This document shows positions 7,788-30,765 of a stretch of 64,000 bases of DNA, piece after piece. Each line of letters opens with the position of its first letter. Position 1 is the stretch's first letter. The stretch lies in contig JANQEE010000017.1 of assembly GCA_028278525.1 (NCBI GenBank), positions 66,274 through 130,273 on the forward strand. Direction: 5' to 3'. The notes under the pieces were generated by a model that was not told the origin of the DNA, searched no databases, and saw only the letters and a list, made by a program, of their open reading frames with translations. The position numbers and the translations under genes were made by a program. This DNA comes from Minwuiaceae bacterium. Lineage in GTDB: Bacteria > Pseudomonadota > Alphaproteobacteria > Minwuiales > Minwuiaceae.

Positions 7788-7808
7788 GAAGACCGAGAAG
7801 CCGCGCGG

Positions 7809-14686: not shown

Positions 14687-15931
14687 CTAGAACCTTGGCA
14701 CATCGAACCGAACCGGCAGTGACAGAATAACGGCGTATTCGGGGCCGTCATCGGTCAAACCGACCACGCCGGCAAGATCGAGCAATACGCCACGGCCAAG
14801 CACCGACGATGCACCGATGGTAAAGGAACCAACAGTCCGATCCGAGCCGTCAACCTTGTCACCGTCGACTTCAGCCTCTTGCGAAAACTGCTGATCAAAG
14901 AAAAACCGCAAGGATGTGGATGGGCTGGCGGCCAGGACGGCACCAAGCGAGAAAGCAAGCTCGTCGCCCGGTTCGATATCGTCCTCTTCGAAGGTACTCT
15001 CGTACAAAAAGCTGGCAACGAATGCGAGAGGATCCTGTCTTTTGACCGCCGTCAACGACCCCCTGATCTCGTTGAAACCCGCGCCGAGCGCAACACCGTC
15101 GTCGAACCTTTCGCCGGTGTCGGAATCCCACGTAATTCTCCCGACAAGATCGGGCCACCACCGGTCTTCACGCAGTAAAGCCTTGGCCAGCCCGATGCGA
15201 AAATCGCCGAACCCCGAGCCGAATCCGCTTTCTTCGTCGCGTGCGCCGAAAACCACGCTTGTTACCGCCGATTGATCGACGAAATTGTACGGCAGGCCGA
15301 CCTCGAACTGGGCGTCCCAAGGCAAGCCGAGACGCAATTCCAGTTCGGCCTCGAATTCATTGCGGCGAACGTTCCGTTCCGCAAGAAACGTCGTAGCGCC
15401 CTCCGTGAAGAAAACCGGCGCATCGTTCTCTCTTCTCGTATAGCTGAAGCTGGGTTCTATTTGCGCTTTTCCGAACGGCAGCAAAAGAGCGCCCTCTTGC
15501 ACGAGCGTACGCTCCAACGCGCGGTCGATCGCGTCCTCGTCAATTTCGAACTCGCCGGGCGCCGGTTGTGGCGCTTGGTCGGTTACGGGCTCCGACGCCG
15601 CGGTCCGATAATTTGGAGATTGGATAATATCGGGGACGGCCGCACGCGAGGCGGGGGCGCCATTGAATGCCGCCGTTGCCAGGTCCGTTGCGTTGGGCGA
15701 GGCGCTTCCAGCCATCGCCCGCTCGAGCTGTTGCACGCGCTGTATGAGGTCCAAGATGACCGCGTCGCGGTCTTCGAGCAGCTCCTGCAGATGTTGGATG
15801 GTCGGCTCTTCGTCGGCTGCGTATGCAGCCGCCGGAACGAATACAGATGCCGACAACGCGCAAAGACAAGCCAGCATCCTGTTTACCGAGTAGACACTCG
15901 TCCGGGTCGGCAGTTTATTCATGTCCCCCAC
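14687..15931 (-). CDS. FapF-like outer-membrane beta-barrel secretion channel (signal peptide, periplasmic coiled coil, Ala/Pro linker, barrel with C-terminal Phe)
   Basis: The N-terminus (MNKLPTRTSVYSVNRMLACLCALSASVFVPAAAYAADE) is a signal peptide, followed by a heptad coiled coil (IQHLQELLEDRDAVILDLIQRVQQLERAMAG), then a low-complexity A/P/S linker. After that come alternating amphipathic beta-strands ending in ...VRFDVPRF. The probable true start is the ATG at 15922. Confidence 0.6.
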   Translation of the reverse strand: MGDMNKLPTRTSVYSVNRMLACLCALSASVFVPAAAYAADEEPTIQHLQELLEDRDAVILDLIQRVQQLERAMAGSASPNATDLATAAFNGAPASRAAVPDIIQSPNYRTAASEPVTDQAPQPAPGEFEIDEDAIDRALERTLVQEGALLLPFGKAQIEPSFSYTRRENDAPVFFTEGATTFLAERNVRRNEFEAELELRLGLPWDAQFEVGLPYNFVDQSAVTSVVFGARDEESGFGSGFGDFRIGLAKALLREDRWWPDLVGRITWDSDTGERFDDGVALGAGFNEIRGSLTAVKRQDPLAFVASFLYESTFEEDDIEPGDELAFSLGAVLAASPSTSLRFFFDQQFSQEAEVDGDKVDGSDRTVGSFTIGASSVLGRGVLLDLAGVVGLTDDGPEYAVILSLPVRFDVPRF

Positions 15932-15961: not shown

Positions 15962-16645
15962 TCAGCGAAGCATGACGAAGTCCTCGGGTCGGGGGGCGAG
16001 CCTGTTGGGAAGTACGGTACCGTCGCGTCGCGCGACCACGAACCCTACCCTTCCGACCTGCGGATACTTTATCCAGGAACTTTCGAACTTGCCCGCGAGC
16101 ATCGTGCGATTGCCGAACGCCGGGTCGGCCAAGAGGACCCGATTGCCGCGCATCCCCCGGAACACCACGAAATGGTTGTATCCGTCGAAATTGACGGGAA
16201 CCATTATCGGCGCACGCTGCTTCAGGTCGTCCAGAGTCAGGCTCCCGTAACCGATCCCTTCGTAGCCTCGGTCGTCGACATATTTCTTCAAGTCAAGCAG
16301 CGAGAAACCATGACGCAACCGAAGCAGACGGGGATTTGCGATGTATTCCTCGCGACTGATCAGCCCCGAGGCGACCTCTTTCTCGGATACAGGGTCGCCA
16401 TGCTGATAGTTGAGGATGGTAGCGAGAGCGGCCGCTCCGCAGCTTAGATCCCACTTCTGAACGACCACCCGGTCTTGGCGGATTTCGAGAAAGGAACGGA
16501 CGGGCTTCGACCCTTCGGCAAGTGCAGCAAAACACGGCGATATGCCGACCAGAATCGTAGCAATGAAAACACGTAACCGAACGTTGATGCGTCCGGTAGC
16601 TCGCCGGGCGTCGGCCCGGCGGCGGGTCTCATTTTGGCTCGACAT
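15962..16645 (-). CDS. Standalone peptidase C39-like cysteine peptidase (FapD-like), secreted
   Basis: The C39 catalytic block WDLSCGAAALATILNYQHG is present, with a signal peptide-like N-terminus (RVFIATILVGISPCFAALA). The start was trimmed to MSSQNE (ATG complement at 16643-16645). It ends 31 bp upstream of the outer-membrane protein gene. Confidence 0.7.
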   Translation of the reverse strand: MSSQNETRRRADARRATGRINVRLRVFIATILVGISPCFAALAEGSKPVRSFLEIRQDRVVVQKWDLSCGAAALATILNYQHGDPVSEKEVASGLISREEYIANPRLLRLRHGFSLLDLKKYVDDRGYEGIGYGSLTLDDLKQRAPIMVPVNFDGYNHFVVFRGMRGNRVLLADPAFGNRTMLAGKFESSWIKYPQVGRVGFVVARRDGTVLPNRLAPRPEDFVMLR

Positions 16646-16834
16646 GGGCCCATCCCCTGTTAGACCGAATCGAGTACTCCAGGTTGACCTTAGCCCAACA
16701 GCACATCCATTGAACGTAAAATCGACGCTTGGGACAACCGCTACTACGCTGCGCCACAATCGGAAATCGATGCGGCTTCAGCGGTAAACGGACCCGTTGA
16801 AGCCCGATCTGTCGAACTCTTTGCCTCTGTGGAG

Positions 16835-16921: not shown

Positions 16922-16947
16922 CTTGGAATTGGGGGTAGCAAGGTCGA

Positions 16948-17658
16948 ATGACTACCACGATTGCGCTGATCGACGAGAGAACACTCACCCGCCAATGCTT
17001 GGCCCGTTGGCTGGAACGCAGCAGCAAGGATTTCAAGATCATCGCAGTTGGAAGACTGGCCGAGCTTGACCAGCGATATGAGCAAAATGAGGACCCTCAT
17101 CTGGTGCTGCTCAGCGTCGGCCACCTGACGGTGACGGACGATGAGGTGCGATCGTCGCTCAAGCAAGTGACCGACCGATTGCCTGACGTGCCTATTATTG
17201 TCCTTTCCGATTCTGAAGACCCTACCGCAGTAGCAGAAGCGATACGCAACGGCGTCAAAGGCTACATTCCAACAACACTCGATTTATCCGTTGCCCTGGA
17301 AGCGCTGCGGCTGGTCCAGGTGGGCGGCACATATGTACCGGCCAGCACTTTCCTTACGGCGCTGGAAAGTCGGGCGCCGGCTTGTCAGCACCAGGAGCCG
17401 CGGCCTGGCGAGCCGCACTCGCTGAAAGGGTTCACACCACGCGAGTTGCAGGTCCTGGAGCTACTTCGAGAGGGCAAGCCGAACAAGATCATCGCCTACG
17501 ACCTGAACATGCAGGAAAGCACCGTGAAAGTTCACGTTCGACACATCATGAAAAAGCTTAAAGCGAGCAATCGTACCCAGGCGGCGTTTCTGGCGCAGCA
17601 GCTGGTGGAAGCGGAACGAGAATACGGGTTGGTGGAGGAGTCCATTCTTACGCACTGA
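16948..17658 (+). CDS. LuxR/FixJ-family response regulator (receiver-like domain plus LuxR HTH)
   Basis: The C-terminal LTPRELQVLELLREGKPNKIIAYDLNMQESTVKVHVRHIMKKL is an HTH_LuxR domain. The N-terminal region is a receiver-like fold. No cognate kinase is adjacent. Confidence 0.8.
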   Translation: MTTTIALIDERTLTRQCLARWLERSSKDFKIIAVGRLAELDQRYEQNEDPHLVLLSVGHLTVTDDEVRSSLKQVTDRLPDVPIIVLSDSEDPTAVAEAIRNGVKGYIPTTLDLSVALEALRLVQVGGTYVPASTFLTALESRAPACQHQEPRPGEPHSLKGFTPRELQVLELLREGKPNKIIAYDLNMQESTVKVHVRHIMKKLKASNRTQAAFLAQQLVEAEREYGLVEESILTH

Positions 17659-17957
17659 CCCCGCCAGATCTTTTTGACCGGCTGACAAGAGGACGCGTCG
17701 TATCGCCGGAGATACGGCTAGAACGTCGAATTAGGGGCCGCCTGCGGGCATGTCACCGGTGGCCGCTCGATTCTCCTGACTCCGTCATACCGTGCGGTCG
17801 GTTTTGCGTAGAGCATTTACATGCGCAAAGCACAAGCCGGACGCGCGCCAGGCGATTGAGCACAACGGAGATAAAAATGCCAAACCTCTACCATTTGGGT
17901 GAAGCGGGAACCGACCAAAAGCGGTAAGGCTGCTGGTATAGTCAGCGGGAGGTCAAT

Positions 17958-18374
17958 ATGAAGAAGCTACTGCTTTTGTCTGTCGTCCTCGGTCTCTCCA
18001 CGTCAACAGCGTGGTCCCAAGAGATTTCAATCAAACCGTCCGAACCGCTTCGCCTGACCCTCAGTCAGATGGAATCGGTTACGGCCGGAGGCTCGCTCGC
18101 ATTGACACTTATCTCTGCGTTGGCATCCGGAGATTCGACGTTGATCAATGGGGTGGCGAGTAGTTTCGCAACAGACGATGTCGCGAACTCGAGCGGGACG
18201 GTTTTTGTCGGCTCGAGTGTGGAACCGGATTCCGACATCGCGGGCAATCAATCAGCGGGCCAGGCGTCAGCGGACGCGTTTGGCGACAACACACTGACGA
18301 TAACGGACGCCTTTGCCCAAACGACGAGTTTGTCTTCTGCGTTGATGCTGTTGTCGCTGGCCGGCGTGGACTGA
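17958..18374 (+). CDS. Small secreted S/T/A/G-rich protein, member 1 of a three-member paralog family (N-motif EPLRLTLSQMESVTAGG; C-motif ASADAFGDNTLTITDAFAQTTSLSS)
   Basis: It has a Sec signal peptide (MKKLLLLSVVLGLSTSTAWSQE). It shares both terminal motifs with the ORFs at 21822 and 23925. Confidence 0.7.
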   Translation: MKKLLLLSVVLGLSTSTAWSQEISIKPSEPLRLTLSQMESVTAGGSLALTLISALASGDSTLINGVASSFATDDVANSSGTVFVGSSVEPDSDIAGNQSAGQASADAFGDNTLTITDAFAQTTSLSSALMLLSLAGVD

Positions 18375-18413
18375 GACGCGGAACATCACCACGGCGGGAC
18401 GAGGCCCGACAAG

Positions 18414-20699
18414 ATGGACGATCCGCCCGAAACGCCGTCAGCGCATACCAGAGACGCCGAAGGCGCAATGTCCCTGTATCGATCGGGTCGCCTGGCGGAC
18501 GCCGAGCAGGCGTACAGGCATCTACTCGACCAGGACGCGGACAACGCGGACAGTCTGCATATGTTGGGCGTAATAGCCTGGCGGCGCGGAGCGGCAGACG
18601 ACGCGAAGTCGCTGATCGAGCAGGCCTTGCGACAAGAGCCGCAAAATGCGCGCTATTACAATAGCCGCGGCATTGTCCTGGCGAACCAAGGGCAACTGGA
18701 GGATGCCCTAAGCTGCTTCGAACAGGCTATCGGTTTAGATTCCGATCTCGTCGAGGCGCACAACAACTACGGCAACGTTCTCAAGTCGCTCGGGCGACTG
18801 GAAGCGGCTTTGGTTGCCTACGATACAGCGATTGAGTCTCGCCCCGGCTATGCCGAGGCGCATTGCAACCGCGGCGGTGTTCTCGAAGCCCTAAGCCGGC
18901 CCGACGACGCGCTGGCGGCTTACGATGAAGCCGTTCGCATCGATCCCCGTTCCGCGAGCGCGCACAACGGTCGAGGCAACGTTCTGGTTGGTCGGGACAA
19001 TCTGAAAGCTGCCTTGGTTGCCTACGACACAACGATCGAGCTTCGTCCGGAAGGCGCGAAAGCCCACTACAATCGCGGCAATGTCCTGAAAGCACTGGGA
19101 CGCTTCGCCGAGGCATTGACCGCCTACGATCGTTCGCTCCGCATCGATGGCGAATTCATCGATGCACAAAACAACTACGGCACCGTTCTCGAATCTCTGG
19201 ATCGGCCCGACGAGGCGCTGGCCGCCTATGATCGGGCGATCCGCATCGATCCCAATTGCGCCAAGGCGCACAACAATCGAGGCAACATATTGAGGGATCA
19301 AGGACGGCTGAAGGACGCCCTGGCGGCATTCGAAACGTCGATTCAGTTGGATCCGGATTCGGCGATCGCCCACAACAATCTCGGCACCCTGCTGAAGGAC
19401 CAAGGCCGCCTCGACGCCGCCTTGGCCCACTTTGAGAAGGCCATCCGCATCGATCCGAATTCGTCGAAACCGCACAGCAACTATCTGATGTGCCTGACGT
19501 GCGATCCCGAACAGGATGACGACGCACTGTTTCAGGCCCACAAGAGATGGGGTGAACGGCATGGCCGTCCGCACGGCGCCTTCACTTGTTACGAGAATTC
19601 CAGGACCGTGAACAAGACGTTGCGCGTCGGTCTGGTCTCCGAGGAATTTGGGCGGACCCCGACCGGCTGGTTCCTGGAATCCGTCCTCTGCGAATTGAAC
19701 GATAAAACTGTCCAGGCCATTTGCTATTCGGACCGTCTGCTAGAGGACGCTTTGACCGACCGTCTGCGGTCCTGTGCTTTCGCTTGGCATTCGACCAGTA
19801 CGCTGACGGATGCAAAGCTCGCTGAATCAATCCGCGCCGATGGGATCGACATCCTGATCGATCTTTCCGGTCACGCCGGCGGCAATCGCCTGGGCTGTTT
19901 TGCCCTGAAACCCGCGCCTGTCCAGGTAAGCTGGATCGGTTACCATGAGACAACCGGACTTCCTGCCATGGATTACATACTGATGGATCCGGTGGTCGTT
20001 CCGATAGGCGCAGAGCGCTGGTTCACGGAGACGGTGGTTCGGTTGCCGCATAGCCGGTTCTGTTACACGCCGCCGGAATATTCGCCTGTCGTCGTTGACC
20101 CGCCGGCCATCGCCAATGGGCACATGACCTTCGGCAGCTTCAACAATCTGGCGAAAGTCAACCCGGAGGTCATTCGCGTTTGGGCGCGCATCCTGACGGA
20201 GGTTCCCGGTTCCAGGTTAATTCTGAAGTGGACGACACTGGACGATTCGGAAGAATGCAAACGGATGGAGAATGCATTCGCCGACTTTGGGATCGAGTCG
20301 GACAGGATCGACATGCGCGGACGGTCGCGCCACCACAGGCTGTTGGCCGAGTACGGCGACGTCGATATCGCTTTGGATCCGTTTCCCTATTGCGGCGGCC
20401 TGACAAGCTGCGAGGCGTTGTGGATGGGCGTTCCGATCGTCACGCTGCCGCACACGCGACCCGTATCGCGCATGACGACGGCCTTCCTGACAGCCATGCA
20501 GAAAACCGAATGGATCGCCGAAAGTACTGCCGACTACATTCGCATCGCGACCGAGCTCGCGAGCGATTTGGATGGCTTGACCGTCCAAAGGTGCGAACAA
20601 CGCGAGAGCATGAGAGTGTCCCCATTGTGCGACGGAGCGCGAGCGGCGCGCGATCTAGAGGCCGCCTTGCGCCTTATGTGGCGTAGATGGTGCGCGTAA
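18414..20699 (+). CDS. TPR-repeat protein with C-terminal O-GlcNAc transferase-like (GT41/SPINDLY-type) domain
   Basis: About ten 34-aa TPR units (AxxxYxxAIxxxP pattern) are followed by a roughly 350-aa glycosyltransferase 41-like C-terminus. The gene is 761 aa. Confidence 0.8.
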   Translation: MDDPPETPSAHTRDAEGAMSLYRSGRLADAEQAYRHLLDQDADNADSLHMLGVIAWRRGAADDAKSLIEQALRQEPQNARYYNSRGIVLANQGQLEDALSCFEQAIGLDSDLVEAHNNYGNVLKSLGRLEAALVAYDTAIESRPGYAEAHCNRGGVLEALSRPDDALAAYDEAVRIDPRSASAHNGRGNVLVGRDNLKAALVAYDTTIELRPEGAKAHYNRGNVLKALGRFAEALTAYDRSLRIDGEFIDAQNNYGTVLESLDRPDEALAAYDRAIRIDPNCAKAHNNRGNILRDQGRLKDALAAFETSIQLDPDSAIAHNNLGTLLKDQGRLDAALAHFEKAIRIDPNSSKPHSNYLMCLTCDPEQDDDALFQAHKRWGERHGRPHGAFTCYENSRTVNKTLRVGLVSEEFGRTPTGWFLESVLCELNDKTVQAICYSDRLLEDALTDRLRSCAFAWHSTSTLTDAKLAESIRADGIDILIDLSGHAGGNRLGCFALKPAPVQVSWIGYHETTGLPAMDYILMDPVVVPIGAERWFTETVVRLPHSRFCYTPPEYSPVVVDPPAIANGHMTFGSFNNLAKVNPEVIRVWARILTEVPGSRLILKWTTLDDSEECKRMENAFADFGIESDRIDMRGRSRHHRLLAEYGDVDIALDPFPYCGGLTSCEALWMGVPIVTLPHTRPVSRMTTAFLTAMQKTEWIAESTADYIRIATELASDLDGLTVQRCEQRESMRVSPLCDGARAARDLEAALRLMWRRWCA

Positions 20700-20783
20700 T
20701 TGTTTCGCAAAAAGCCACGGCGAAGTCGACGAATCCCGCCGACAAAAGAGAGCACAGCCTGGGCCGGGTTGGCGGACGTTCTC

Positions 20784-21125
20784 TCAGCCCGAACCGACGC
20801 GATTGTCGTCGTGCGCAGGTAGCCAAACGTCCGCCGCAGCTCTGTGTGCCTGCCGAGCCGACTTGGCATAGATCCGAGCCTGAAAGACGTTGTCGATATC
20901 GGCGCCGCCGAAACGGTCGATCAGCTTTTCAATGAACAACGGGAAGGTCGCGTGGAGAACATCCACATCCTGCATATCTTCATGGAGCTGATCCAGTAAC
21001 TCCGCCAGCGCGTTCAGCCGCGACGGCCAGGAGCGATGACGGAGCGGCTCGTAGACGCGTTCGACCAACTCGTCGGCCAAGCGCTCCGGCGTTACGGGCA
21101 ATGGGCTATGGGGTTTCACACGCAT
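20784..21125 (-). CDS. Hypothetical protein
   Basis: The 113-aa ORF has a balanced composition. The opposite-strand ORF is Arg-rich and likely spurious. Confidence 0.3.
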   Translation of the reverse strand: MRVKPHSPLPVTPERLADELVERVYEPLRHRSWPSRLNALAELLDQLHEDMQDVDVLHATFPLFIEKLIDRFGGADIDNVFQARIYAKSARQAHRAAADVWLPAHDDNRVGSG

Positions 21126-21152
21126 TTTGCAGACCTGATTTAAGGCGCACGA

Positions 21153-21449
21153 TCATCGAGACGTCGACGCATGGGCTTTGGCGCGCGCGCTTTGTCGCGA
21201 AACGGAAAGATATACGGACGCCTTGCCGCCGCGTGAACTCGCGGAAGCCCTTGCCGTCGCCCGGCCTTGCATGTCGGTCAATGTTTCAGACAGATAAAGG
21301 TCTCCGCCAATGACTGTTCGTTCGTGGACAATCGGGCGTCGGTCAGGGGCTGACCCCTCATCCGCAAATACCGGTTCCCCACCGGCCGTGGAGACGAAAC
21401 CGACCGCGGCACAAACCATGACGGCAACGCGGACAACCATTGCGCTCAT
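21153..21449 (-). CDS. Hypothetical small secreted protein
   Basis: A signal peptide (MSAMVVRVAVMVCAAVGFVSTAGGEP) is present. It shows weak resemblance to the EP...LTD.Q N-motif of the small-protein family. Confidence 0.3.
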   Translation of the reverse strand: MSAMVVRVAVMVCAAVGFVSTAGGEPVFADEGSAPDRRPIVHERTVIGGDLYLSETLTDMQGRATARASASSRGGKASVYLSVSRQSARAKAHASTSR

Positions 21450-21821
21450 GACCTTCGACGTTGAAATCCACCAATCCGATAACGTCGGCATAACCAACCA
21501 TGGCTGACGTCAAAGGATTAAAGTCTGGCGCCGGAACCTGGCCAAGCTGTCAATAGGTCGTAGCATTGCGGGCATGGGCCATCGTTGCTTCGGAAGACCG
21601 GGCAACGAAGCCCCCTTTTTGACGATTTGGCGTCGCCGTCTACAGCCATGGTTGTAGGCGCGGATCTGACCTCCCCAATTCGTCGCACCGATCACCGCCG
21701 AACGGCGGGCCAACCTTTTGGGTGGTTGTCCGGTGTCTCTACCAACACGCACACTCGATACACTGGCGCTGACGCCTCGCGCGGGCGCCGGTCGACAGAA
21801 CAATCGGAGGAGTGTTCGAAC

Positions 21822-22178
21822 ATGTCGAAGACAATGCTTTCCCTGCTTGCCGGTGTTTCGTTTGTGGCGTTGACGGGCGCCGCCGGCGCGGTGGAGCCGA
21901 TCAAGCTCACCGACAACCAGATGGACAAAGTCACGGCCGCCGGCTTTGTGGACTTCGATACCGACATCGATGTCAACGTCGACATCGACAAGGATGTCGA
22001 TATCAACGTGGATGCCGATGTGGACGCGGATGTCGATGTCGACGGCCATCTCGCCGTGGCAGAGGCCTCGGCCGACGCGTTTGGCAGCTTCGGCACCTTG
22101 TCGATTACCGATGCGTTTGCGCAGACGACGAGCAACTCTTCGGAGTCGTTCTCGTTCGCCTTGGCCGCGACGGACTAA
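21822..22178 (+). CDS. Small secreted acidic-repeat protein, member 2 of the paralog family (DVDIDKDVDINVDADVDADVDVD core)
   Basis: An RBS (ggagg) lies 11 nt upstream of the ATG. It has a Sec signal (MSKTMLSLLAGVSFVALTGAAGA), the N-motif EPIKLTDNQMDKVTAAG, and the C-motif ASADAFGSFGTLSITDAFAQTTSNSS. A terminator follows. Confidence 0.8.
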   Translation: MSKTMLSLLAGVSFVALTGAAGAVEPIKLTDNQMDKVTAAGFVDFDTDIDVNVDIDKDVDINVDADVDADVDVDGHLAVAEASADAFGSFGTLSITDAFAQTTSNSSESFSFALAATD

Positions 22179-22234
22179 GGCATCACCCGGCCTGATACGT
22201 GACCGAGGCCGGAAGTCCCTTAAACAAACTGAGC

Positions 22235-22265
22235 GCCCCGTGTCATCGCACGGGGCCATTTTTCT
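22235..22265 (+). terminator. Rho-independent terminator (gccccgtg-N6-cacggggc followed by a T-run)
   Basis: A GC-rich hairpin followed by TTTTTCT lies 57 nt after the stop of the 21822 gene. It is conserved in the paralog copy. Confidence 0.75.
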
Positions 22266-22347
22266 GCGACTCTTCGCTCGGACCCGTATTGCACGAAATC
22301 GGGCGGCAAGCTCTTCTGTCCTCCCAAACGTACGGGACGACCTCTGC

Positions 22348-23490
22348 CTAGCCGCTTTCCACCTGGCCATCACCGGCGTCGGGCACGCGCGAAGCCAGTG
22401 CACGGCGCCGGGCAGCGTTGGTCTTGTCGAAGAAGAAGCCGAAGATCCCGAAGCGTCTGCCCGATGTCACGGGCAGAGCCTCATGCAGCAGCTCAGCCGA
22501 GAAAACCACGGCGCCGCCGGCATCCGGCTTATAGAGCTGGCGCCCGAACTCCGGGAACCAGAGTTCGCCGCCTTCGTACTCGTGCGTGTTCAGATTAATC
22601 GTAAGCGCGAACTGCCGAAGTTTCGTGGCCGGCGTCGCTGTGGTATCGCGGTGGCGCAGAAACCTTCCTTGGACGGCGGAATCGTAACAACCGACGCGCA
22701 GCAACTGCCAGCTCTGCAGCTCGAAGTGAAACGCCTTCAGCAATTGCGGCGCGATGCGACGATTTATTCTCGCTCGCAGCTCGATGTTCAGGGCGCGGCT
22801 TGTTATGTGGACATCGGCCCGCCGCTTTTGGCCGTAGTCCGCACGGACGGCAGTTCCATGCGTTGTGGAGGTTACCTGATCGACCAACTTGTTGCCGGCT
22901 TGCCAATAGTCCATCAGCTTTCGGCAGAGATCCGGCTCAAGCACGTCATGAACGATCAGGGCCGGCGCCGCGGCCCGCACCTGCTGCGGCGCTGTCCGCT
23001 CAAAGATCCGGGTGCAATCTTCAAGCGCCGCCCCGAACGCGGCCCCCGGCCGGACGGAGACGATGCGCCCATCCGCATCCAGGACCACGACACCCGGACC
23101 GGTCAGGCCGACGGCACGCGCGACCCGCCGGTTTGGGTCGAGGAGCGTCCGCAATCCGATCGGCGATGGCACCGCCGCGGCCGACCCGTTGCGCGCGCGC
23201 ACGACCAGCCATGGATTGGCGCCGACCGCCTCGAAATCCGGCTGACGTTGGGCGAAAAGCCCTGCAACAACGGGATCCGGAGCGGCGTCCGCGATCCAGA
23301 GAACGAACGGCATGCCGATCCAGGATCCGTTCGCAATATGGACCTTGTTGCCTTGCGTGCTCTCGAGTTCGATAGCCTCCAGCGTATCGCCGCATGCAAC
23401 TTTGGCGGGCTTCGAAACCGGACCGATATCAAATCGATCGGCGGCCTTCGCCGGCTGTTTTTGCGTCGACTTATCGTCTGCCAAGGACAT
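22348..23490 (-). CDS. Thioredoxin-like (AhpC/TSA-type) N-domain fused to a 2OG-Fe(II) oxygenase (prolyl/aspartyl hydroxylase-like) C-domain
   Basis: The C-terminal part has HxD...H spacing (FLRHRDTT ... LLHEALPV) and RxS (SGRRFGIFGF) 2OG-binding features. The N-terminal 150 aa is redoxin-like. The gene is 380 aa. Confidence 0.65.
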   Translation of the reverse strand: MSLADDKSTQKQPAKAADRFDIGPVSKPAKVACGDTLEAIELESTQGNKVHIANGSWIGMPFVLWIADAAPDPVVAGLFAQRQPDFEAVGANPWLVVRARNGSAAAVPSPIGLRTLLDPNRRVARAVGLTGPGVVVLDADGRIVSVRPGAAFGAALEDCTRIFERTAPQQVRAAAPALIVHDVLEPDLCRKLMDYWQAGNKLVDQVTSTTHGTAVRADYGQKRRADVHITSRALNIELRARINRRIAPQLLKAFHFELQSWQLLRVGCYDSAVQGRFLRHRDTTATPATKLRQFALTINLNTHEYEGGELWFPEFGRQLYKPDAGGAVVFSAELLHEALPVTSGRRFGIFGFFFDKTNAARRRALASRVPDAGDGQVESG

Positions 23491-23924
23491 CCGGGCCTCG
23501 CGTCTTCTTCGCCTGTGCGATCGCCTCCGGCATCAGACTGCCCGGGGGTTTGTCGCCAAGACATGCGGGGGCACTAACCGTTAGTTTAAGTCCGGCCCCC
23601 CGCCCCCGGCCTACTTGACAATTTGAGGTACGTCTTTCGTTCGGCAGCATGGCCACCGGACGAACCCGACGAGTCACTTTGATATCTTCGTAGGACCGCC
23701 TATTGGCTGCACGCGGCCGAACCGGCGGCAGCAAATTGCGTCTACCACCGTGGCGGTAGACGCGGACCGGAACTCAGCATTTCGTCGCACCGGTCACCGT
23801 CGAACGGCGGGCCAACCTTTTGGGCGGTTGTCCGTCATCTGCACCCACACGCAAACTCAATCCACTGGTGCCGACGCTCGGCGCGGGCGCCGGTTGACAG
23901 ACCCAATTGGAGGAGTGCTCGAAC

Positions 23925-24278
23925 ATGTCGAAGACAATGATTTCCCTGCTGGCCGGCGTGTCGTTTGCCGCATTGACCGGAGCCGCCGGGGCGGCGGAGC
24001 CGGTCAAGCTGACCGACGGCCAGATGGACAGGATCACGGCCGCCGGCGGTGTGACGTTCGATACCGACATCAATGTCATGGTCGACATCGATAAGGACGT
24101 CGATATCGACGTGGACGCCGATGTGAACGCGGATGTCGACATCGAAGGCAATCTTGCGGTGGCCGAAGCCTCGGCCGATGCCTTTGGCAGCGATACCTTG
24201 TCGATTACCGACGCGTTCGCGCAGACGACGAGTTTCTCTTCGGAGTCGTTCTCGTTTGCTCTGGCCGCGACCGATTAA
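23925..24278 (+). CDS. Small secreted acidic-repeat protein, member 3 of the paralog family
   Basis: It is about 85% nucleotide-identical to the 21822 gene, including the RBS, the leader and the terminator. The N-motif is EPVKLTDGQMDRITAAG and the C-motif is ASADAFGSDTLSITDAFAQTTSFSS. Confidence 0.8.
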   Translation: MSKTMISLLAGVSFAALTGAAGAAEPVKLTDGQMDRITAAGGVTFDTDINVMVDIDKDVDIDVDADVNADVDIEGNLAVAEASADAFGSDTLSITDAFAQTTSFSSESFSFALAATD

Positions 24279-24333
24279 CGCATTACCCGGCCTCACACCT
24301 CGTCGAGGCCGGAAGCGCTTCAATTAAACTGAA

Positions 24334-24365
24334 AGCCCCATGTTTGCACATGGGGCTACTTTTTG
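24334..24365 (+). terminator. Rho-independent terminator (agccccatg-N5-catggggct followed by a T-run)
   Basis: This hairpin plus TTTTTG sits after the 23925 gene and is paralogous to the 22235 terminator. Confidence 0.75.
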
Positions 24366-24414
24366 CGCCGGTTCAGAAAAGCACGTAGAACGGGAAGAGA
24401 GTCCTCGATCGGAA

Positions 24415-25716
24415 TTAGCGGCCGACGTCGACCGCGCCGTCGGACGGCAATTTCGTGGGGTAATCTCCGAACACCTTGCCGGCGGGCTCGGCGGGCCGGT
24501 CAGCCAGTGTGGCTTCTCCGTAGGTTCGATAATAGTACGCCACGGTCTCGAGCAGCGTGTCATAGAGCGAAATCCGGGGCGTCCATCCCAATAGTTCCCT
24601 GGCCTTCGCCAGCACCGGCATCCGACGATCACAGTCTTCATAGCCCTCGCCATAGAAGTCCCGCGACGAAACCGACACGATCGGATGGGAGAGGTAGGAC
24701 GGGTCGCCGGTCACTTCGGCATAGACCAGCCGCATCAACTCCGCCAGCTCTGCCATCGTGACCTCATTCTCGCGGTTTCCGATATTGAAGATCTGGTTCG
24801 CCGCCCGATCCGGCTTTTGCAACATCAGCACGACCGCGGCAATGGCGTCGTGGATGGACACGATGGTGCGTCGCGCCGCACCGCCATCGACCAATTGCAG
24901 GGGCGACCGGTCCAACAGGGCTGTCATAAAGCAGGCGAGAACCCGCGGTATGCCCTCGCCGTCCCGGCCGGGAATGAAATCCATCTTCGGCCCAAAGAAG
25001 TTGAGCGGGCGAACGATCGTATATGGCAGGCCGCGTTCCCTGTGGTGCGCATAGATGAAGCGCTCCAACATCTGTTTCGCGCAGGCGTAGCTCCAGCGTT
25101 GGTTCTGGATGGGTCCCATGATCAACGGCGTTGCGGTTTCTTCCAGCTCGAATAGATCCGGATTCGAATAGTCGGGCGCCGGCAGATAGCTCGAAACCGT
25201 GCGCCCGTAGACCTCGCTGGTGGAGAAATGAATCAGCCACGTGCCGTGATGCGAACAGAGCTCGACCAGGCGATAGACGTCCAGGAAATTGGATTTGATC
25301 ACTTCCAGCGGGTTCGTGTTGTACTGCGACGGATTGCAAATGGCAGCCAGGTTGATGACCGCATCCGCCCACCTGACCGCTTCAATTAGTCCCGCGGGAA
25401 TCCGCGTATCGCTGAACGCTTCCCGATGGAACGTGAATTTCGGATTGGCCAGATGCGCGGCGATCTTCTCGTCATGCAGATCCCAGCCTTCGATCCGGAT
25501 CGCCCCTTGATCCAGAAGCCTGTCCAGAAGGTGGCTGCCGATAAAGCCACCGCATCCCAGGACAACCAAGTTCCGGACAGGTGGGAGGGAACGACGACCG
25601 TTGCCGACCCGCAAAGAGTGTTGCTCGACGCCATTTCGGCCATTGGCTGGAGGCCCATCTTGAGCCGACTTCCTTGTTCGTTTCCCGTCGCTTCGAAGCT
25701 CGGACTTGGCAGCCAT
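24415..25716 (-). CDS. NAD-dependent epimerase/dehydratase (UDP-glucuronate decarboxylase / ArnA C-domain-like)
   Basis: It has the LGCGGFIGSHL Rossmann motif and a YACAKQMLER (YxxxK) catalytic motif. The gene is 433 aa. Confidence 0.8.
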   Translation of the reverse strand: MAAKSELRSDGKRTRKSAQDGPPANGRNGVEQHSLRVGNGRRSLPPVRNLVVLGCGGFIGSHLLDRLLDQGAIRIEGWDLHDEKIAAHLANPKFTFHREAFSDTRIPAGLIEAVRWADAVINLAAICNPSQYNTNPLEVIKSNFLDVYRLVELCSHHGTWLIHFSTSEVYGRTVSSYLPAPDYSNPDLFELEETATPLIMGPIQNQRWSYACAKQMLERFIYAHHRERGLPYTIVRPLNFFGPKMDFIPGRDGEGIPRVLACFMTALLDRSPLQLVDGGAARRTIVSIHDAIAAVVLMLQKPDRAANQIFNIGNRENEVTMAELAELMRLVYAEVTGDPSYLSHPIVSVSSRDFYGEGYEDCDRRMPVLAKARELLGWTPRISLYDTLLETVAYYYRTYGEATLADRPAEPAGKVFGDYPTKLPSDGAVDVGR

Positions 25717-26272
25717 GGTCCCACTCCCGTCTTGTTTTCGTTACACACCGCGTCACGCAGGTCATTCGCCGTAACGGCCATCTCCTGCCGCTCACCCTCG
25801 CCTCTGGGTTGCGCATGCGCGCGGCCGGCCACGCGCCTGAACGGCCTCGAACAATTCAAGCCGCATGACAATCGCCCGGCTAGAAGCCAATCCGATGTAG
25901 GCGAGCGCTCGAAAGAGGTAGAGCAGCCCGGGTAAGCACCGGGCCGGACAATGCCGAACCGGCGCGCGTCGGCACGCCGCGCCCGCCGTTGTTCTTCGTT
26001 CGGTCGTTTTGCCGGTAAGAGAACCGAGAACGCCCGCGTGTCGGATGTACGAACGCGGCCCGGCCTCGATCACCGATCAATTTACCTACCTCCAAATCGG
26101 TAGGAAGGAGCAAATTGATGAACGTTTGGACAGCGCTTAATGCCAAAGGCGAATTGTCACCCCGCGAGAACGCAAGCAAAATTCCAAGAAGTCTTTTTGT
26201 CTTGGTGGTTTATGACGTTGCTTGTACGTACGGCATTCGTGCGGCCGAGCGCATATCGGGGAGGGTGGACCT

Positions 26273-27565
26273 ATGTTTATTCGGGGCACGCGAGGCGACG
26301 ACATTCTGATCGGCACGGCTGCGGATGACTTCATCTTGGGTAACGGTGGCAACGACATTATCGATGCCACCCTGGGCGGCAACAACACGATCATTACCCG
26401 CAGCGGCGACGACCAAATTTTGGCTGGATTGGGCAACGACGTCATCAACGACCGTGGCGGCGACAACACCATCATGGATCTCGGCGGCAACAACTTCATA
26501 CGAACCCGCGATGGCGACGATGATATCACCACCGGCGACGGCGATGACGAAATCTATGCGGGCGACGGGACCAACATCATCGACGCCGGCGACGGCAACA
26601 ATACCGTCATCGGCGGCGATGGTTTCGACGATATCAGGGTCGGTTTCGGGAGCGATTTCGTCAAACTTGGAAGTGGCAACGAGCCCATCGACGTAAGCGG
26701 CACCGGCGCGACGGTCGATTTCTCGATTGGCGGCGCCATCTCGATCAACGGCGAGCCGCTGTTCGACTTTAGCGGCATCGGTGCCGATGATCCCAATCAG
26801 CTTATCGATCTGGCCAACTTCGGCCTGGCATCACTTGGTTTTGGCGTCGTGAGCGCGAGTAATCTGAGCATCGACTTCGGCGGGAGCGACACCATCCTCG
26901 GTTCGGGCCGCGACGACGTCATTTTGAACGACTTCTTTTTTCTCGGCGGCTCCGGCCCGGCAGCCAGCGACGACGAGATCCATGCCGGCGAAGGCGAAAA
27001 CATCGTCATCGATGTCGGCGGCAACAACCTGATCACCTCCGGCGAGGGCGACGACATCATTTTTACGTCGCTGGTGGCGGCGGTCGCCGGTGACGACGAA
27101 GTCATCAGCGGCGGCGGTGACGACAACGTTCAGACCGGCGCCGGCAGCGACAATGTCCAGACCGAAGAGGGCAACGACATATTGGTGGGCGGCACGGGTC
27201 CGGACATACTGGCAGGCGGAACAGAGCAAGATCGCATCTTTCCCGGGACAATGAACGCCTTCGATGGGCAGACCGACATCATCGATTACAACTCGCTGGC
27301 CGAAACCACGCCGGACCCAAGTCAGGTCGATCTGGTATTCGGTTTCGAGCCGGGCGCCGGCGGCGACCAGATCGACTTCAGTGATTTAACCGGGCCGGCG
27401 TTCGACATCGGTTCCGACCTCAAATTCCTGGTCGGCAATGTCGGCGTTACGCCGAGCACTTTCGTGCTGCTCGACCCCGATGGCGGCGCCGACGGCTTCG
27501 TCTTCACAGCGGCTTTGGTCGGCACAAATCCGGCGTTGCTCACCCCGGACAATTTTATCGTCTGA
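26273..27565 (+). CDS. RTX-type calcium-binding repeat protein (putative T1SS substrate)
   Basis: It contains many GGxGxDxU nonapeptide repeats (GGNDIIDATLGGNNTIITRSGDDQILAGLGNDVIND...). It lies directly upstream of the T1SS ABC/MFP genes. An RBS (gggagggtgga) precedes ATG 26273. Confidence 0.8.
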   Translation: MFIRGTRGDDILIGTAADDFILGNGGNDIIDATLGGNNTIITRSGDDQILAGLGNDVINDRGGDNTIMDLGGNNFIRTRDGDDDITTGDGDDEIYAGDGTNIIDAGDGNNTVIGGDGFDDIRVGFGSDFVKLGSGNEPIDVSGTGATVDFSIGGAISINGEPLFDFSGIGADDPNQLIDLANFGLASLGFGVVSASNLSIDFGGSDTILGSGRDDVILNDFFFLGGSGPAASDDEIHAGEGENIVIDVGGNNLITSGEGDDIIFTSLVAAVAGDDEVISGGGDDNVQTGAGSDNVQTEEGNDILVGGTGPDILAGGTEQDRIFPGTMNAFDGQTDIIDYNSLAETTPDPSQVDLVFGFEPGAGGDQIDFSDLTGPAFDIGSDLKFLVGNVGVTPSTFVLLDPDGGADGFVFTAALVGTNPALLTPDNFIV

Positions 27566-27673: not shown

Positions 27674-29416
27674 TTGACGTCAATGATGCTCGATCGAAAC
27701 GAAAACGGTGACCCGGCCGCAACGGCGGTACGAGCATCTCGCGGCGCCTTTGTCGCGGTTGCCCTGTTCAGTCTGTTTCACAATCTGCTGCTGCTGACCG
27801 TCCCCCTCTACATGCTGCAGATCTACGACCGGGTGCTCACGTCCGGCAGTCAGGCAACGTTGGCGATGCTGACCGTCGTCGCGCTTGGCATGTTGTTGGC
27901 GAGCGCCTTGCTCGAGCTCGTGCGTAATCGAATCCTGACACGTCTGGCAATGCGCCTCGACGATCGCCTGAACGCCGACGTGCTCACGGCGACCCATCGA
28001 CTTCGGCTCGACAAAGTTCAGCAAAACGGACAACCGCTGATCCGCGATCTCGAGATCGTGCGCGCCTTTCTTGCGGGCAACGGCCTCATCGCCCTTCTGG
28101 ATATGCCGTGGACGCCCGTGTTCATCGTGGTGATTTTCCTGTTTCACCCCCTTCTCGGGTCGGTCGCGCTCGGCGGCGTCATTCTGTTGTTCGGGCTTGG
28201 CGTTCTGAATGAGCTGGTGACAAGGAAGCCGCTTAGGGAAGCGCTTCGCGAACACGCGACGGGTCAGTCCTTCGCGGAGACGAGCCTGCAGAACGGCGAT
28301 GTCGTCGAAGCCATGGCAATGCTGCCCGGCCTACACCGGCGCTGGCGCGAGCATCATGAGCGGTCCCTTCTTTTGCAGACGAAATTGAGCGATCGCGCGG
28401 GAACGATTGCCGCCTTCGCCAAGTTTGCCCGCCAAGGCTTGCAGATAGCGATGCTTGGGCTTGGCGCCTATCTCGCGCTGCAGCAGGTAATTACGGCGGG
28501 CGTCATGATCGCCGCATCGATCATCCTCGCCCGTGCGTTGGCGCCAGTCGAATTGTCGATCATGGGTTGGCGGGGTTTCGTGCAGGCACGGGAGTCTTTC
28601 GCGCGGCTGCGGCGGGCCGTCACCTCGGCCGGGCCGGACACCGATCCAATGCGCCTTCCAGACCCGACGGGTCGCATCGCTATCGAGAATCTGTTCGCTG
28701 CGCCTCCGGGGGTCGCGAAACCGGTCCTCCGAAATGTCACCTGCGACCTCGAGCCCGGCCAGATACTCGGTGTGATCGGTCCGAGCGCCGCCGGCAAATC
28801 CACATTGGCACGAGTGCTGGTCGGTGTATGGCAGCCGAAGTCTGGCCATGTGCGCCTGGACGGTGCCGATTTCGCGACCTGGGATCGCCGCCAGCTTGGG
28901 CCGTGTATCGGCTATCTGCCTCAGGACGTCGAGCTGTTCGATGGCTCGATCAAAGAAAACATCGCGCGATTTGAGCTGCCGGTCACGGAGCGGGTCGTCG
29001 CCGCGGCACGGCGTGCGGGCGTCCATGACATGATCCTCGGCCTACCCGACGGCTACAATACGAGGATTGGCGATGGCGGAAGCGTGCTCTCAGGCGGACA
29101 GCGACAGCGTATCGCGCTGGCCCGGGCGCTTTACGGCGACCCGGTGCTGATCGTGCTCGACGAACCGAATGCCAGCCTAGACACCGACGGCGACCACTCC
29201 CTTCGAGTTGCACTGGAAACCCTGAAGGCCGAGCAAAAAACGGTTGTGATCATCTCCCATCGTCTCAATGTGCTGGCGGTGGCCGATCAGCTAATGCTGC
29301 TGCGCGACGGCGCGGTGGAACGATCCGGCCCCCGCGCCGAAGTTCTAACGGCCCTGACGCGGGTGGCGGCCAGCCAGTCGGTCAGCACCAGCCGCGACGC
29401 GGCTGTGGCGACATGA
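27674..29416 (+). CDS. Type I secretion system ABC transporter permease/ATPase (PrtD/HasD-type, no N-terminal C39 domain)
   Basis: A 6-TM domain is followed by an ABC ATPase with Walker A (GPSAAGKST), the signature LSGGQRQRIALARAL, and Walker B (IVLDEP). Confidence 0.9.
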   Translation: MTSMMLDRNENGDPAATAVRASRGAFVAVALFSLFHNLLLLTVPLYMLQIYDRVLTSGSQATLAMLTVVALGMLLASALLELVRNRILTRLAMRLDDRLNADVLTATHRLRLDKVQQNGQPLIRDLEIVRAFLAGNGLIALLDMPWTPVFIVVIFLFHPLLGSVALGGVILLFGLGVLNELVTRKPLREALREHATGQSFAETSLQNGDVVEAMAMLPGLHRRWREHHERSLLLQTKLSDRAGTIAAFAKFARQGLQIAMLGLGAYLALQQVITAGVMIAASIILARALAPVELSIMGWRGFVQARESFARLRRAVTSAGPDTDPMRLPDPTGRIAIENLFAAPPGVAKPVLRNVTCDLEPGQILGVIGPSAAGKSTLARVLVGVWQPKSGHVRLDGADFATWDRRQLGPCIGYLPQDVELFDGSIKENIARFELPVTERVVAAARRAGVHDMILGLPDGYNTRIGDGGSVLSGGQRQRIALARALYGDPVLIVLDEPNASLDTDGDHSLRVALETLKAEQKTVVIISHRLNVLAVADQLMLLRDGAVERSGPRAEVLTALTRVAASQSVSTSRDAAVAT

Positions 29417-30765
29417 CGCTCGTCAACGATATTCGATCGATCGTCCCGTCCGCGCGATCGGAGCACACGCGTTTCAAGGCGGTATTGCAGATGCGGCCGG
29501 CGATCCTAAGCGGCCTGTTCGTGTTGCTCATCACGTTCGGCGGGTTTGGGACGTGGGCGGCGCTCATTCCGATCGACGGCGGCGTGATCGCTCCCGGCTT
29601 CGTCACCGTCGCCACCAACCGCAAGGCCGTACAGCACCTGGATGGCGGTATCGTTGCGGCGGTGATCGTCCGGGACGGCGACGAGGTGCGCGCCGGCGAC
29701 ATTCTCGTTCGCCTCGACAACACCCGTGCCCGCGCCTCGGTGGCCATCTTGCAGGACAGATTGCACTCAGCATTGGCTATCAAGGCACGCCTGACCGCGG
29801 AGCAGACGGGGGCCGCCGAAATCCTGTTTCCACAAATCCTCCTTGATCGAGCGTCGGAACAGGACATCGCGGACATTATGAACGGGCAGCAGGTGTTGTT
29901 TCAGGCACGGCGGGACAGCCTGGTCGGCGAGACGACGATACTGAAGCAGCGCGTCGACCAGTTGACCGGAAAAATCGATGCGATCGAAGCGCAGAAGACG
30001 TCGAAGACCCGGCAACGCGCGCTGATCCATGAGGAGCTTGAAGGCCTTCGAGAGCTTTTTAAGAAAGGCTACACCGAGCGCTCTCGGATCCTGGCATTGT
30101 CACGCACGGCCGCGCGGCTGGAAGGCGAATATGGCGAGCATTCCGCCGACATCGTCCGGGTCGAGGAGGCGATCGGCGAAACGCGATTGCAGATGCTGCA
30201 GGCACAGAAGGCATTTCGCGAAGACGTCGTCGCCGAGCTTCGCGACATTCAGATGCAAATTTTCGATCTCGATGAAAGGGTGGGCGCTGCGCGGGACCTG
30301 GAGGACAAACTGGAGTTACGCGCGCCGGTCGCCGGCACCGTCGTCGCTACCGCAGTGCATGGCATCGGCCAGGTGATCAAGCCGGGAGAGACGATCCTCG
30401 AAATTGTACCCGCCGGGGATCCGCTTGTTATCGAAGCCCATGTCCGCCCTGTCGACATCGACAGCGTTTCCGTGGGGCAAGAGGTCACCGTGCGGCTAAC
30501 CGCCTTCAAGCAACGGACGACACCCACCCTGAGCGGCCGTGTCATCTATGTGTCCGCCGACAGCCTCGTCGGTCGGCAATCAGGCCATGCATACTACTTG
30601 GCGCGTATCGAGGTGCCGAAAGACGAGGCCCGACGTCTGGGCAACCGAAACCTGTTGCCCGGCATGCCCGCTGAAACATTGATACGAACGGGAGGCCGAA
30701 CTGCCATGCAGTATCTGCTGCAACCAATCGCCGATGGCATGGCCCGGGCCTGGCGGGAAGAGTAG
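29413..30765 (+). CDS. HlyD-family T1SS periplasmic adaptor (membrane fusion protein)
   Basis: It has a single N-terminal TM segment, long coiled coils, and a C-terminal beta-domain. It overlaps the ABC gene by 4 bp. Confidence 0.9.
   Translation: MTLVNDIRSIVPSARSEHTRFKAVLQMRPAILSGLFVLLITFGGFGTWAALIPIDGGVIAPGFVTVATNRKAVQHLDGGIVAAVIVRDGDEVRAGDILVRLDNTRARASVAILQDRLHSALAIKARLTAEQTGAAEILFPQILLDRASEQDIADIMNGQQVLFQARRDSLVGETTILKQRVDQLTGKIDAIEAQKTSKTRQRALIHEELEGLRELFKKGYTERSRILALSRTAARLEGEYGEHSADIVRVEEAIGETRLQMLQAQKAFREDVVAELRDIQMQIFDLDERVGAARDLEDKLELRAPVAGTVVATAVHGIGQVIKPGETILEIVPAGDPLVIEAHVRPVDIDSVSVGQEVTVRLTAFKQRTTPTLSGRVIYVSADSLVGRQSGHAYYLARIEVPKDEARRLGNRNLLPGMPAETLIRTGGRTAMQYLLQPIADGMARAWREE

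Follow-up and report, generated by a model that had tools for sequence, protein, structure and literature searches.

A fusion of a redoxin-like domain and a 2-oxoglutarate oxygenase encoded between two genes for acidic secreted proteins in a Minwuiaceae bacterium

The subject of this analysis is a stretch of 64,000 nucleotides from Minwuiaceae bacterium (Alphaproteobacteria; Minwuiales), i.e., positions 66,274 to 130,273 of contig JANQEE010000017.1 in assembly GCA_028278525.1, which is referred to below as the window. It contains a gene for a 380-aa protein in which a redoxin-like N-terminal domain (N-domain) is joined to an Fe(II)/2-oxoglutarate (2OG) oxygenase domain (C-domain), and this fusion gene lies on the opposite strand between two paralogous genes for small, Asp-rich secreted proteins, small1 and small2 (Table 1). 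A preliminary description of the locus had proposed that the enzyme is an aspartyl or asparaginyl β-hydroxylase acting on these neighbours. The open reading frame is exactly where that description placed it, with an ATG start, and its position between the two acidic-repeat genes is also as described. The role as an aspartate hydroxylase of the small proteins is possible, but poorly supported. The reading favoured here, with middling confidence, is that the oxygenase performs the general job of its family and that its place between the small genes is incidental.

Table 1. Features of the window that are discussed in the text; positions are those of the window, and the model was made with AlphaFold2 (AF2).
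Feature	Positions	Strand	Basis or remark
Gene for the 380-aa redoxin-like/2OG-Fe(II) oxygenase fusion	22348..23490	-	Open reading frame, ATG start, homologues, family alignment, AF2 model
N-terminal thioredoxin-fold (AhpC/TSA/BCP-like) domain, ~residues 35-166	22993..23388	-
C-terminal double-stranded beta-helix oxygenase domain, ~residues 175-356	22423..22968	-
H280-R281-D282 codons, predicted HxD iron ligands	22645..22653	-	Invariant in 23-sequence alignment
H336 codon, predicted distal iron ligand	22483..22485	-	Invariant in 23-sequence alignment
R346 codon, presumed 2OG C5-carboxylate ligand, 10 residues past H336	22453..22455	-	Invariant
small1, 118-aa secreted Asp-rich protein, convergent with the oxygenase gene, proposed substrate	21822..22178	+
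small2, 117-aa paralogue, 84% identical to small1, divergent from the oxygenase gene	23925..24278	+
small3, divergent 138-aa paralogue with the same leader motif and a C-terminal ASADAFG..TL.ITDAFAQTTS module	17958..18374	+
Repeat copy 1: ~185-nt leader, small1, terminator-like hairpin at 22235-22256	21637..22263	+	Direct repeats D2, D5, D6
Repeat copy 2: leader, small2, terminator-like hairpin at 24334-24357	23739..24363	+	Direct repeats, terminator scan
FapF-like outer-membrane channel, 414 aa: signal peptide, heptad-like N-terminal stretch, β-barrel	14687..15931	-
FapD/FilB-like C39 cysteine peptidase with N-terminal hydrophobic anchor	15962..16648	-	Pfam Peptidase_C39 7.7e-14
LuxR-type regulator	16948-17658
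Tetratricopeptide repeat (TPR) and glycosyltransferase family 41 (GT41) protein glycosyltransferase, SPINDLY/OGT-like	18414..20699	+	Pfam Glyco_transf_41 1.1e-47; PDB SPINDLY 5.5e-144
113-aa cytoplasmic protein	20784-21125	-	No family match
ArnA-C-terminal/UDP-xylose-synthase-like short-chain dehydrogenase/reductase (SDR), sugar-nucleotide modification	24415..25716	-	NCBIfam PRK11908 5.7e-75
Repeats-in-toxin (RTX)-like protein	26222-27565
PrtD/HlyD-type type I secretion system (T1SS)	27674-30765

The fusion protein and its two domains

A Pfam scan of the fusion protein itself returned no match at E≤0.1, AspH (PF05118) included, and the domain calls rest instead on a sub-threshold NCBIfam match, profile searches, homologues and structure, which agree with the redoxin-like N-domain and the oxygenase C-domain named in the preliminary description. 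The NCBIfam model for Fe2+-dependent dioxygenases of the PKHD type (PRK05467) matched residues 180-363 at 8.4e-10 and 38.5 bits, below its cut-off of 143, and in a search of the PDB with the family profile the C-terminal half matched PKHD-type hydroxylases, PiuC, and viral and human lysyl hydroxylases. The AF2 model of the protein has a mean predicted local distance difference test score (pLDDT) of 84.8, with the oxygenase domain modelled at high confidence. Its predicted fold was matched to the Pseudomonas prolyl hydroxylase PPHD (score 18.6), PiuC (17.8), the Trichoplax PHD (17.4), vCPH (16.8), OGFOD1 (15.4) and the Mimivirus lysyl hydroxylase (15.1), with PhyH-type enzymes lower, at about 13.3, and small-molecule enzymes such as PolD and SnoK also further down the list. 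PiuC and Sbal_3634, both of the PKHD type, are among the closest matches by sequence as well as by structure, and the characterised protein hydroxylases among the closest structural matches all act on Pro or Lys.

On this predicted fold the C-domain belongs to the prolyl/lysyl-hydroxylase/PKHD class of Fe/2OG oxygenases. It had been described as of the prolyl/aspartyl-hydroxylase type, of which the prolyl half can be kept, with lysyl and PKHD enzymes beside it, and the aspartyl half finds no support: neither AspH nor FIH was among the top 60 structural matches of the model, AspH was not among the best 60 of 132 PDB profile matches (E≤1), and no similarity to FIH/JmjC (cupin_8) proteins was found by sequence or fold. 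The structural comparison with AspH and PKHD enzymes that had been recommended came out on the prolyl/lysyl-hydroxylase/PKHD side. Because the fold is of the P4H/PHD/PKHD class, the domain also does not group with small-molecule dioxygenases such as PhyH or TauD, a grouping that the preliminary description had named as telling against its proposal.

The Fe/2OG triad is complete (HxD...H), and a basic residue is present about 10 positions past the distal His. H280-R-D282 is the sole HxD of the protein, the distal His is H336, and the basic residue is R346, which sits in GRRFG; the HxD...H reported earlier is therefore correct, whereas the RxS motif reported with it occurs nowhere in the 380 residues. 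H280, D282, H336 and R346 are all invariant in an alignment of 23 diverse homologues, together with the blocks KRRxD, NLN, FPE(F/Y)G and LLHEAxPV. Judged by these residues, the fusion protein is probably an active Fe(II)/2-oxoglutarate hydroxylase, in which H280, D282 and H336 would hold the iron and R346 would bind the C5 carboxylate of 2OG.

In the N-terminal half, the family profile matched peroxiredoxin/ResA chains over positions 9-144 with E about 1e-10, and the N-domain of the model was matched to a peroxiredoxin (16.6), so that the thioredoxin fold is supported by both profile search and structure; many homologues carry the corresponding PF00578 annotation (see below). No conserved Cys was found at the peroxidatic position (PxxxTxxC), either in the N-domain of the fusion protein, which has AAPDPVV there, or in the family alignment. 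Since both the peroxidatic and the resolving Cys are missing, the domain should not be a peroxidase, and it reads from its sequence as a redox-dead thioredoxin fold that has clearly lost its ancestral redox chemistry.

Because it has a hydrophilic N-terminus and no signal peptide, the fusion protein is presumably located in the cytoplasm. The gene has a G+C content, overall and at third codon positions (GC3), that is normal for the region and carries no foreign-DNA signature, and no second copy of the oxygenase was found in the 64-kb window. The protein is unusually basic, with an isoelectric point (pI) of 9.3, compared with 8.8 in a relative of 75% identity, a median of 6.6 in the family and 5.1-6.3 in the nearest relatives. 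The shift in charge is much weaker over the aligned core, where it amounts to +4 and falls inside the family range of -11 to +7. The basic charge may be taken as a weak hint at an acidic substrate.

Distribution of the fusion family and of the small-protein loci

A homology search gathered 277 clusters of fusion-protein homologues, most of them annotated with PF13640 (2OG-FeII_Oxy_3) and many additionally with PF00578 (AhpC-TSA); the relative of 75% identity (P0002) carries a precomputed PF13640 match, and some homologues have been named "YbiX/peroxiredoxin" by the Joint Genome Institute (JGI). Among species-representative genomes there are at least 583 confirmed matches, mostly in Alphaproteobacteria (Rhodospirillales, Thalassospira, Reyranella, Roseomonas, Caulobacter and sphingomonads), with a minority in cyanobacteria, planctomycetes and actinobacteria. 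The family is thus already annotated in the databases but uncharacterised, and the gene of the window is a further member of it.

The neighbourhoods of the family were surveyed at 83 loci (L001-L003, L014-L093), of which 80 were taken with 10 kb and three contigs with 8 kb on either side. When all three small proteins of the window were used as tblastn queries, none of the 83 loci had a homologue within these 8-10 kb. Clustering of the neighbours around 80 loci revealed no conserved partner, i.e., no gene common to more than seven loci, and the clusters that did form, each from at most seven loci, consisted of glutathione S-transferases (GSTs), histidine kinases and tandem paralogues. A larger apparent cluster of 25 loci was discarded, as it was an artefact of long antisense reading frames over the GC-rich oxygenase gene. 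Of the relatives outside Minwuiales with available flanking sequence, the closest (L001, L002 and L014; 45-47% identity) lie in unrelated metabolic contexts, with a flavin adenine dinucleotide (FAD) monooxygenase as neighbour, with overlapping stop and start, in L001, and an acyl-CoA dehydrogenase in L002. At three loci from Caulobacter or other Caulobacteraceae (L067, L077 and L082) the fusion gene is followed by an ATP-binding cassette/membrane fusion protein pair of a T1SS, with a TauD-like gene in between in L077, and at four others (L045, L055, L073 and L092) two fusion paralogues stand in tandem.

The converse comparison started from the small proteins, whose partners were judged only at loci with enough flanking context. 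The conserved partners are the TPR-GT41 protein, the C39 peptidase, the FapF-like protein of about 415 aa, the ArnA-like SDR and the RTX-like protein. This set is present at L006-L009, where four small genes stand in tandem, and in Geminicoccaceae (L100/L101), whereas at the cyanobacterial loci, L013 and L095, the shared part is limited to the small genes, the TPR-GT41 gene and that of the RTX-like protein. In the available flanking sequence of all these loci and of L096, which together represent at least five lineages, the oxygenase was not found. Apart from the window, it occurs together with the small genes only in a metagenome-assembled genome (MAG) of Minwuiales (L099, plus the short contig L094). 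There the region is wholly syntenic with the window, each gene being 71-86% identical (75% for the oxygenase, the GT41 and the FapF-like protein alike), and the nested layout is shared, with a small gene convergent with the oxygenase gene and, on L094, the leader of a small gene on its far side. Because the whole L099 region is syntenic, the layout there is retention within one lineage and not an independent association. A search of metagenome contigs with a narrower small-protein alignment added at least two short loci (L097, L098); its pattern, AEASADA[FW], is of low complexity.

In one of the cyanobacterial loci, that of Leptothoe spongobia (L013), a 431-aa JmjC_2/Cupin_8 protein is encoded at 16939-18234 on the minus strand, about 6.5 kb from the small genes; it was not seen in the second cyanobacterial locus, L095. 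JmjC_2/Cupin_8 proteins are a class of 2OG oxygenases that includes Asn and Asp hydroxylases.

Within the window itself, the oxygenase gene occupies unique DNA between the two copies of a direct repeat of about 627 bp (80-85% identical), each of which holds one small gene. Since it lies on the opposite strand and each small gene is followed by a terminator-like hairpin, the oxygenase gene appears from this layout to be a transcription unit of its own, separate from the small genes. A promoter scan found nothing.

The small acidic proteins and the surrounding Fap-like cluster

In small1 and small2 a Sec-type hydrophobic N-terminus is followed by a core rich in Asp and by a conserved module at the C-terminus, and the earlier view that these proteins are secreted is borne out by this signal and by the FapF/FapD-like export genes nearby. 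Asp accounts for 17-19 of about 117 residues and is by far the most abundant candidate residue for a modification (small2 holds the string DVDIDVDADVNADVD); the mature proteins are free of Pro, whose single occurrence is in the leader, and have one or two conserved Lys (in DKD). The AF2 model of small2 has a pLDDT of 47 and is of low confidence through the acidic core, which would be consistent with an unfolded monomer and with an accessible substrate. A profile search with the small-protein family collected 402 clusters at E≤1e-3 and 134 at E≤1e-10, and the alignment of this broad family is highly variable. Asp-richness is not conserved in it, since D alternates with N, T or K: a Geminicoccaceae homologue (L100, 6074-6499) has the Asn/Lys-rich core NLNKNKNANTNINFNKN where the window proteins carry DIDKDVDIDVDADV. 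The acidic core would therefore be one variant of a repeat in which polar and hydrophobic residues alternate.

The Sec-type signal is followed by EPxxL(T/S)xxQ(M/L)Dx(V/I)(T/S)A(A/G)G, encoded at 21891-21944, 23994-24047 and, in small3, 18030-18086, a motif that on its sequence resembles a double-glycine (GG) leader. In the cyanobacterial homologues P0126-P0128 the Sec signal is missing and the GG leader is a plain one (MIISDLNYLE.V...GAGG), and L006 encodes further secreted proteins with the same signal and GG-like cassette (6902-8906, minus strand). C39 enzymes canonically cleave at GG, and the motif suggests that the small proteins may be processed by the C39 peptidase of the cluster. P0261, P0296 and about 40 other proteins, all of 300-400 aa, start directly with the post-GG core and the C-terminal module of the small proteins and continue into a longer domain with a DVSGST-type motif, which by eye is like that of von Willebrand factor A (vWA). 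This suggests that the small-protein module can serve as an N-terminal tag for secretion or assembly.

Upstream of the Asp-rich small genes there is a leader of about 185 nt (21640-21821 and 23742-23924 in the window; 1701-1885 of L099 and 20-200 of L094, both on the minus strand), conserved at roughly 85-90% even where the proteins are only about 75% identical. An Rfam scan of 17000-26500 gave no match, and RNAalifold predicted three or four hairpins with only 3 compensatory pairs. The leader may be a structured 5′ untranslated region or a region that binds a regulator.

The genes around the small proteins resemble a Fap system. The family profile of the channel protein matched the FapF structure in the PDB at 5.7e-13 over nearly the whole barrel, its NCBIfam FapF match (2.7e-8) stays below the cut-off, and its heptad-like stretch was read by eye as a coiled coil. 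The C39 peptidase matched the NCBIfam models FilB (5.9e-29) and FapD (4e-25), and the FapF match of the channel and the FapD match of the peptidase are both far below the equivalog cut-offs. For the small proteins no Fap-family match was found in the Pfam and NCBIfam scans, and no direct comparison with FapB/C was made. The TPR-GT41 gene is conserved beside the small genes at five loci (L006, L099, L100, L013 and L095), and the ArnA-like SDR has a 68% identical counterpart in L006. The 113-aa protein encoded between the GT41 and small1 genes has a 71% identical counterpart in the Minwuiales MAG and is absent from L006 and L100, i.e., it is a lineage-specific insert like the oxygenase. Fap systems export their subunits through Sec and possess a C39-type protease, FapD, and a channel, FapF, whose coiled coil is periplasmic (PMC6173800). 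As the FapF-like channel, the FapD-like peptidase and the Sec signal with its GG-like leader match this set-up, the cluster is best read, by these sequence resemblances, as a system for fibril secretion that is related to Fap and includes glycosylation in the cytoplasm.

Candidate functions and known systems

The favoured reading, that the enzyme does the general job of its family, seems the most likely because the fusion is usually a stand-alone gene in varying contexts and belongs to a large alphaproteobacterial family. The Cys-less, peroxiredoxin-fold N-domain would then most likely be a docking or substrate-recognition module, and the C-domain, by analogy of fold, would hydroxylate Pro or Lys side chains of some cellular protein or peptide that is widely conserved. 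That the gene lies between those of the acidic fibril subunits would be due to chance in the gene order of Minwuiales.

Several points weigh against this reading. The nested arrangement has been kept in a relative at 75% identity (L099, L094), although in a region that is syntenic at 71-86%. For all the remaining genes of this section of the cluster an action on the small proteins is plausible, which gives guilt by association some weight, and the conserved SPINDLY-like glycosyltransferase is cytoplasmic too, which already implies a modification of the small proteins before export. The basic pI of the window enzyme and of its relative would suit an acidic substrate. The "housekeeping" role is deduced from the distribution of the family only, and the view of the genome is one of 64 kb, so that a second paralogue may lie elsewhere.

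That the oxygenase modifies proteins of the cluster in one way or another, Asp/Asn β-hydroxylation included, is doubtful, yet a chance to be reckoned with. The form of this idea that survives best, itself unlikely, is a lineage-specific recruitment, in which the Minwuiales oxygenase would have become an accessory of the Fap-like fibril system that tailors its proteins. Its targets in the cytoplasm, before Sec export, would be the subunits, which are predicted to be disordered (e.g., at the conserved Lys of D-K-D or at another residue), or another protein of the cluster, and it might act alongside the SPINDLY/OGT-like glycosyltransferase, in the way that hydroxylation precedes glycosylation at the hydroxylysine of collagen or the hydroxyproline of Skp1. 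The retained nesting between subunit genes, a fold class that is that of protein hydroxylases, lysyl hydroxylases included, the conserved cytoplasmic partner glycosyltransferase, the low-confidence model of the small2 core, which fits an accessible unfolded substrate, and the position of the enzyme at the basic extreme of its family all argue for it. Against these stand the at least five other lineages that have the small-protein system but lack the oxygenase, and the conservation there of both the Lys and the glycosyltransferase, from which it follows that neither depends on the oxygenase. The oxygenase and the small genes are also not co-transcribed, all family-invariant residues are kept, with no sign of an altered pocket, little of the charge shift is left over the conserved core, and a prolyl hydroxylase would find its only Pro in the leader of the small proteins. 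Taken with the missing independent co-location, this lineage-specific link speaks against the proposal that the small proteins are dedicated substrates.

The model first put forward, an Asp/Asn β-hydroxylase acting on DVDIDVD-type cores whose product would strengthen the binding of Ca or Fe, is improbable. It shares the positional evidence with the recruitment and can appeal to the abundance of Asp, to the basic enzyme and to the fact that the type of substrate residue cannot be read from a fold with certainty. The enzyme has, however, no sequence or fold similarity to AspH or FIH/JmjC, and it possesses the carboxylate ligand that is characteristically missing in AspH (PMC4543633). The closest characterised protein hydroxylases by structure act on Pro or Lys, and the top-ranking PiuC has no known substrate. 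The Asp positions themselves are not conserved in the small-protein family, where Asn/Lys or T/N/K cores stand elsewhere, and in other lineages the oxygenase and the small genes do not occur together. As to β-hydroxy-Asp as a strong Ca ligand, a review notes that β-hydroxylation of Asp left the Ca binding of epidermal growth factor (EGF) modules substantially unchanged (PMC4543633).

A substrate other than protein, i.e., a metabolite, a sugar-nucleotide or a siderophore-like compound, has a similarly slim chance. Small-molecule substrates are suspected for the iron-regulated PKHD-type PiuC/YbiX proteins, PiuC and Sbal_3634 are among the closest matches, and some family members adjoin metabolic genes (those of L001 and L002, the GSTs, the TauD-like gene in L077). 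No metabolic neighbour is conserved, however, the best among the structural matches of known substrate are protein hydroxylases, and the YbiX/PiuC equivalog score is far short of its cut-off. That the fusion protein is catalytically dead, with a structural or regulatory role, is suggested by the lost redox chemistry of its N-domain and is very improbable in view of the intact, family-invariant iron and 2OG ligands in a confidently modelled oxygenase domain.

If the subunits were modified, they would be the first substrate for an uncharacterised family with at least 583 species-level members, and hydroxylation would join the known modifications of secreted bacterial fibre proteins. The recruitment would provide a bacterial counterpart of the collagen-type hydroxylation and glycosylation of an extracellular fibre, and if the target were Asp or Asn, an aspartyl hydroxylase with the fold of prolyl hydroxylases would be seen for the first time. 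If they are not modified, which is more likely, the gene order of one lineage accounts for the adjacency, and the fold speaks for chemistry of the Pro/Lys type and not of the Asp type.

Among known enzymes, AspH shares with the fusion protein the Fe/2OG-dependent hydroxylation chemistry of the superfamily, and it acts on Ca-binding EGF modules, working in the lumen of the endoplasmic reticulum on folded domains. Its metal site is made up of two His, the only protein ligands, and lacks an Asp/Glu carboxylate (PMC4543633), whereas the fusion protein has the full triad with the invariant D282. The PiuC/YbiX proteins (COG3128; PDB 9qn0, 3dkq) are single-domain proteins of about 225 aa, in contrast to the fusion with its extra N-domain of about 170 aa, which also scores far below their equivalog cut-offs. 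They are typically iron-regulated and adjoin TonB receptor genes; literature searches returned no papers on PiuC hydroxylase and nothing about function for YbiX/PKHD. The prolyl hydroxylases of the PHD/P4H group that were compared (P. putida PPHD 4iw3, PHD2, TaPHD, viral and algal collagen P4H, OGFOD1/Tpa1) are only 15-19% identical to the fusion protein and have no N-terminal redoxin domain, and the small proteins next to the fusion gene offer no Pro in their mature part. From the BCP/AhpE/ResA peroxiredoxins the fusion family differs in having neither a peroxidatic nor a resolving Cys at PxxxTxxC. The pathways that pair a hydroxylase with a glycosyltransferase, those of LH3, mimivirus L230 and the Skp1 prolyl hydroxylase, are analogies only, as the glycosyltransferase of the window is a GT41 (SPINDLY/OGT-like) enzyme that is conserved also in systems without the hydroxylase. 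GT41 enzymes of this kind act on Ser and Thr.

With the Fap systems, the cluster around the oxygenase shares a FapF-like channel, a FapD-like C39 peptidase and small, Sec-exported, repetitive subunits (PMC6173800). The subunits differ in that they appear unrelated to the FapB/C repeats and carry the GG-leader-like motif, the FapF- and FapD-like scores stay below the NCBIfam cut-offs, and the cluster adds the TPR-GT41 protein, the SDR, the RTX-like protein and a T1SS. It is also alphaproteobacterial and cyanobacterial in distribution, whereas reports of Fap were confined to Beta-, Gamma- and Deltaproteobacteria (PMC3792158). The cluster therefore has the look of a Fap-related secretion system, so far undescribed, that comes with genes for glycosylation and is found in Alphaproteobacteria and cyanobacteria; it is arguably more novel than the oxygenase and probably the more rewarding target for experiments.

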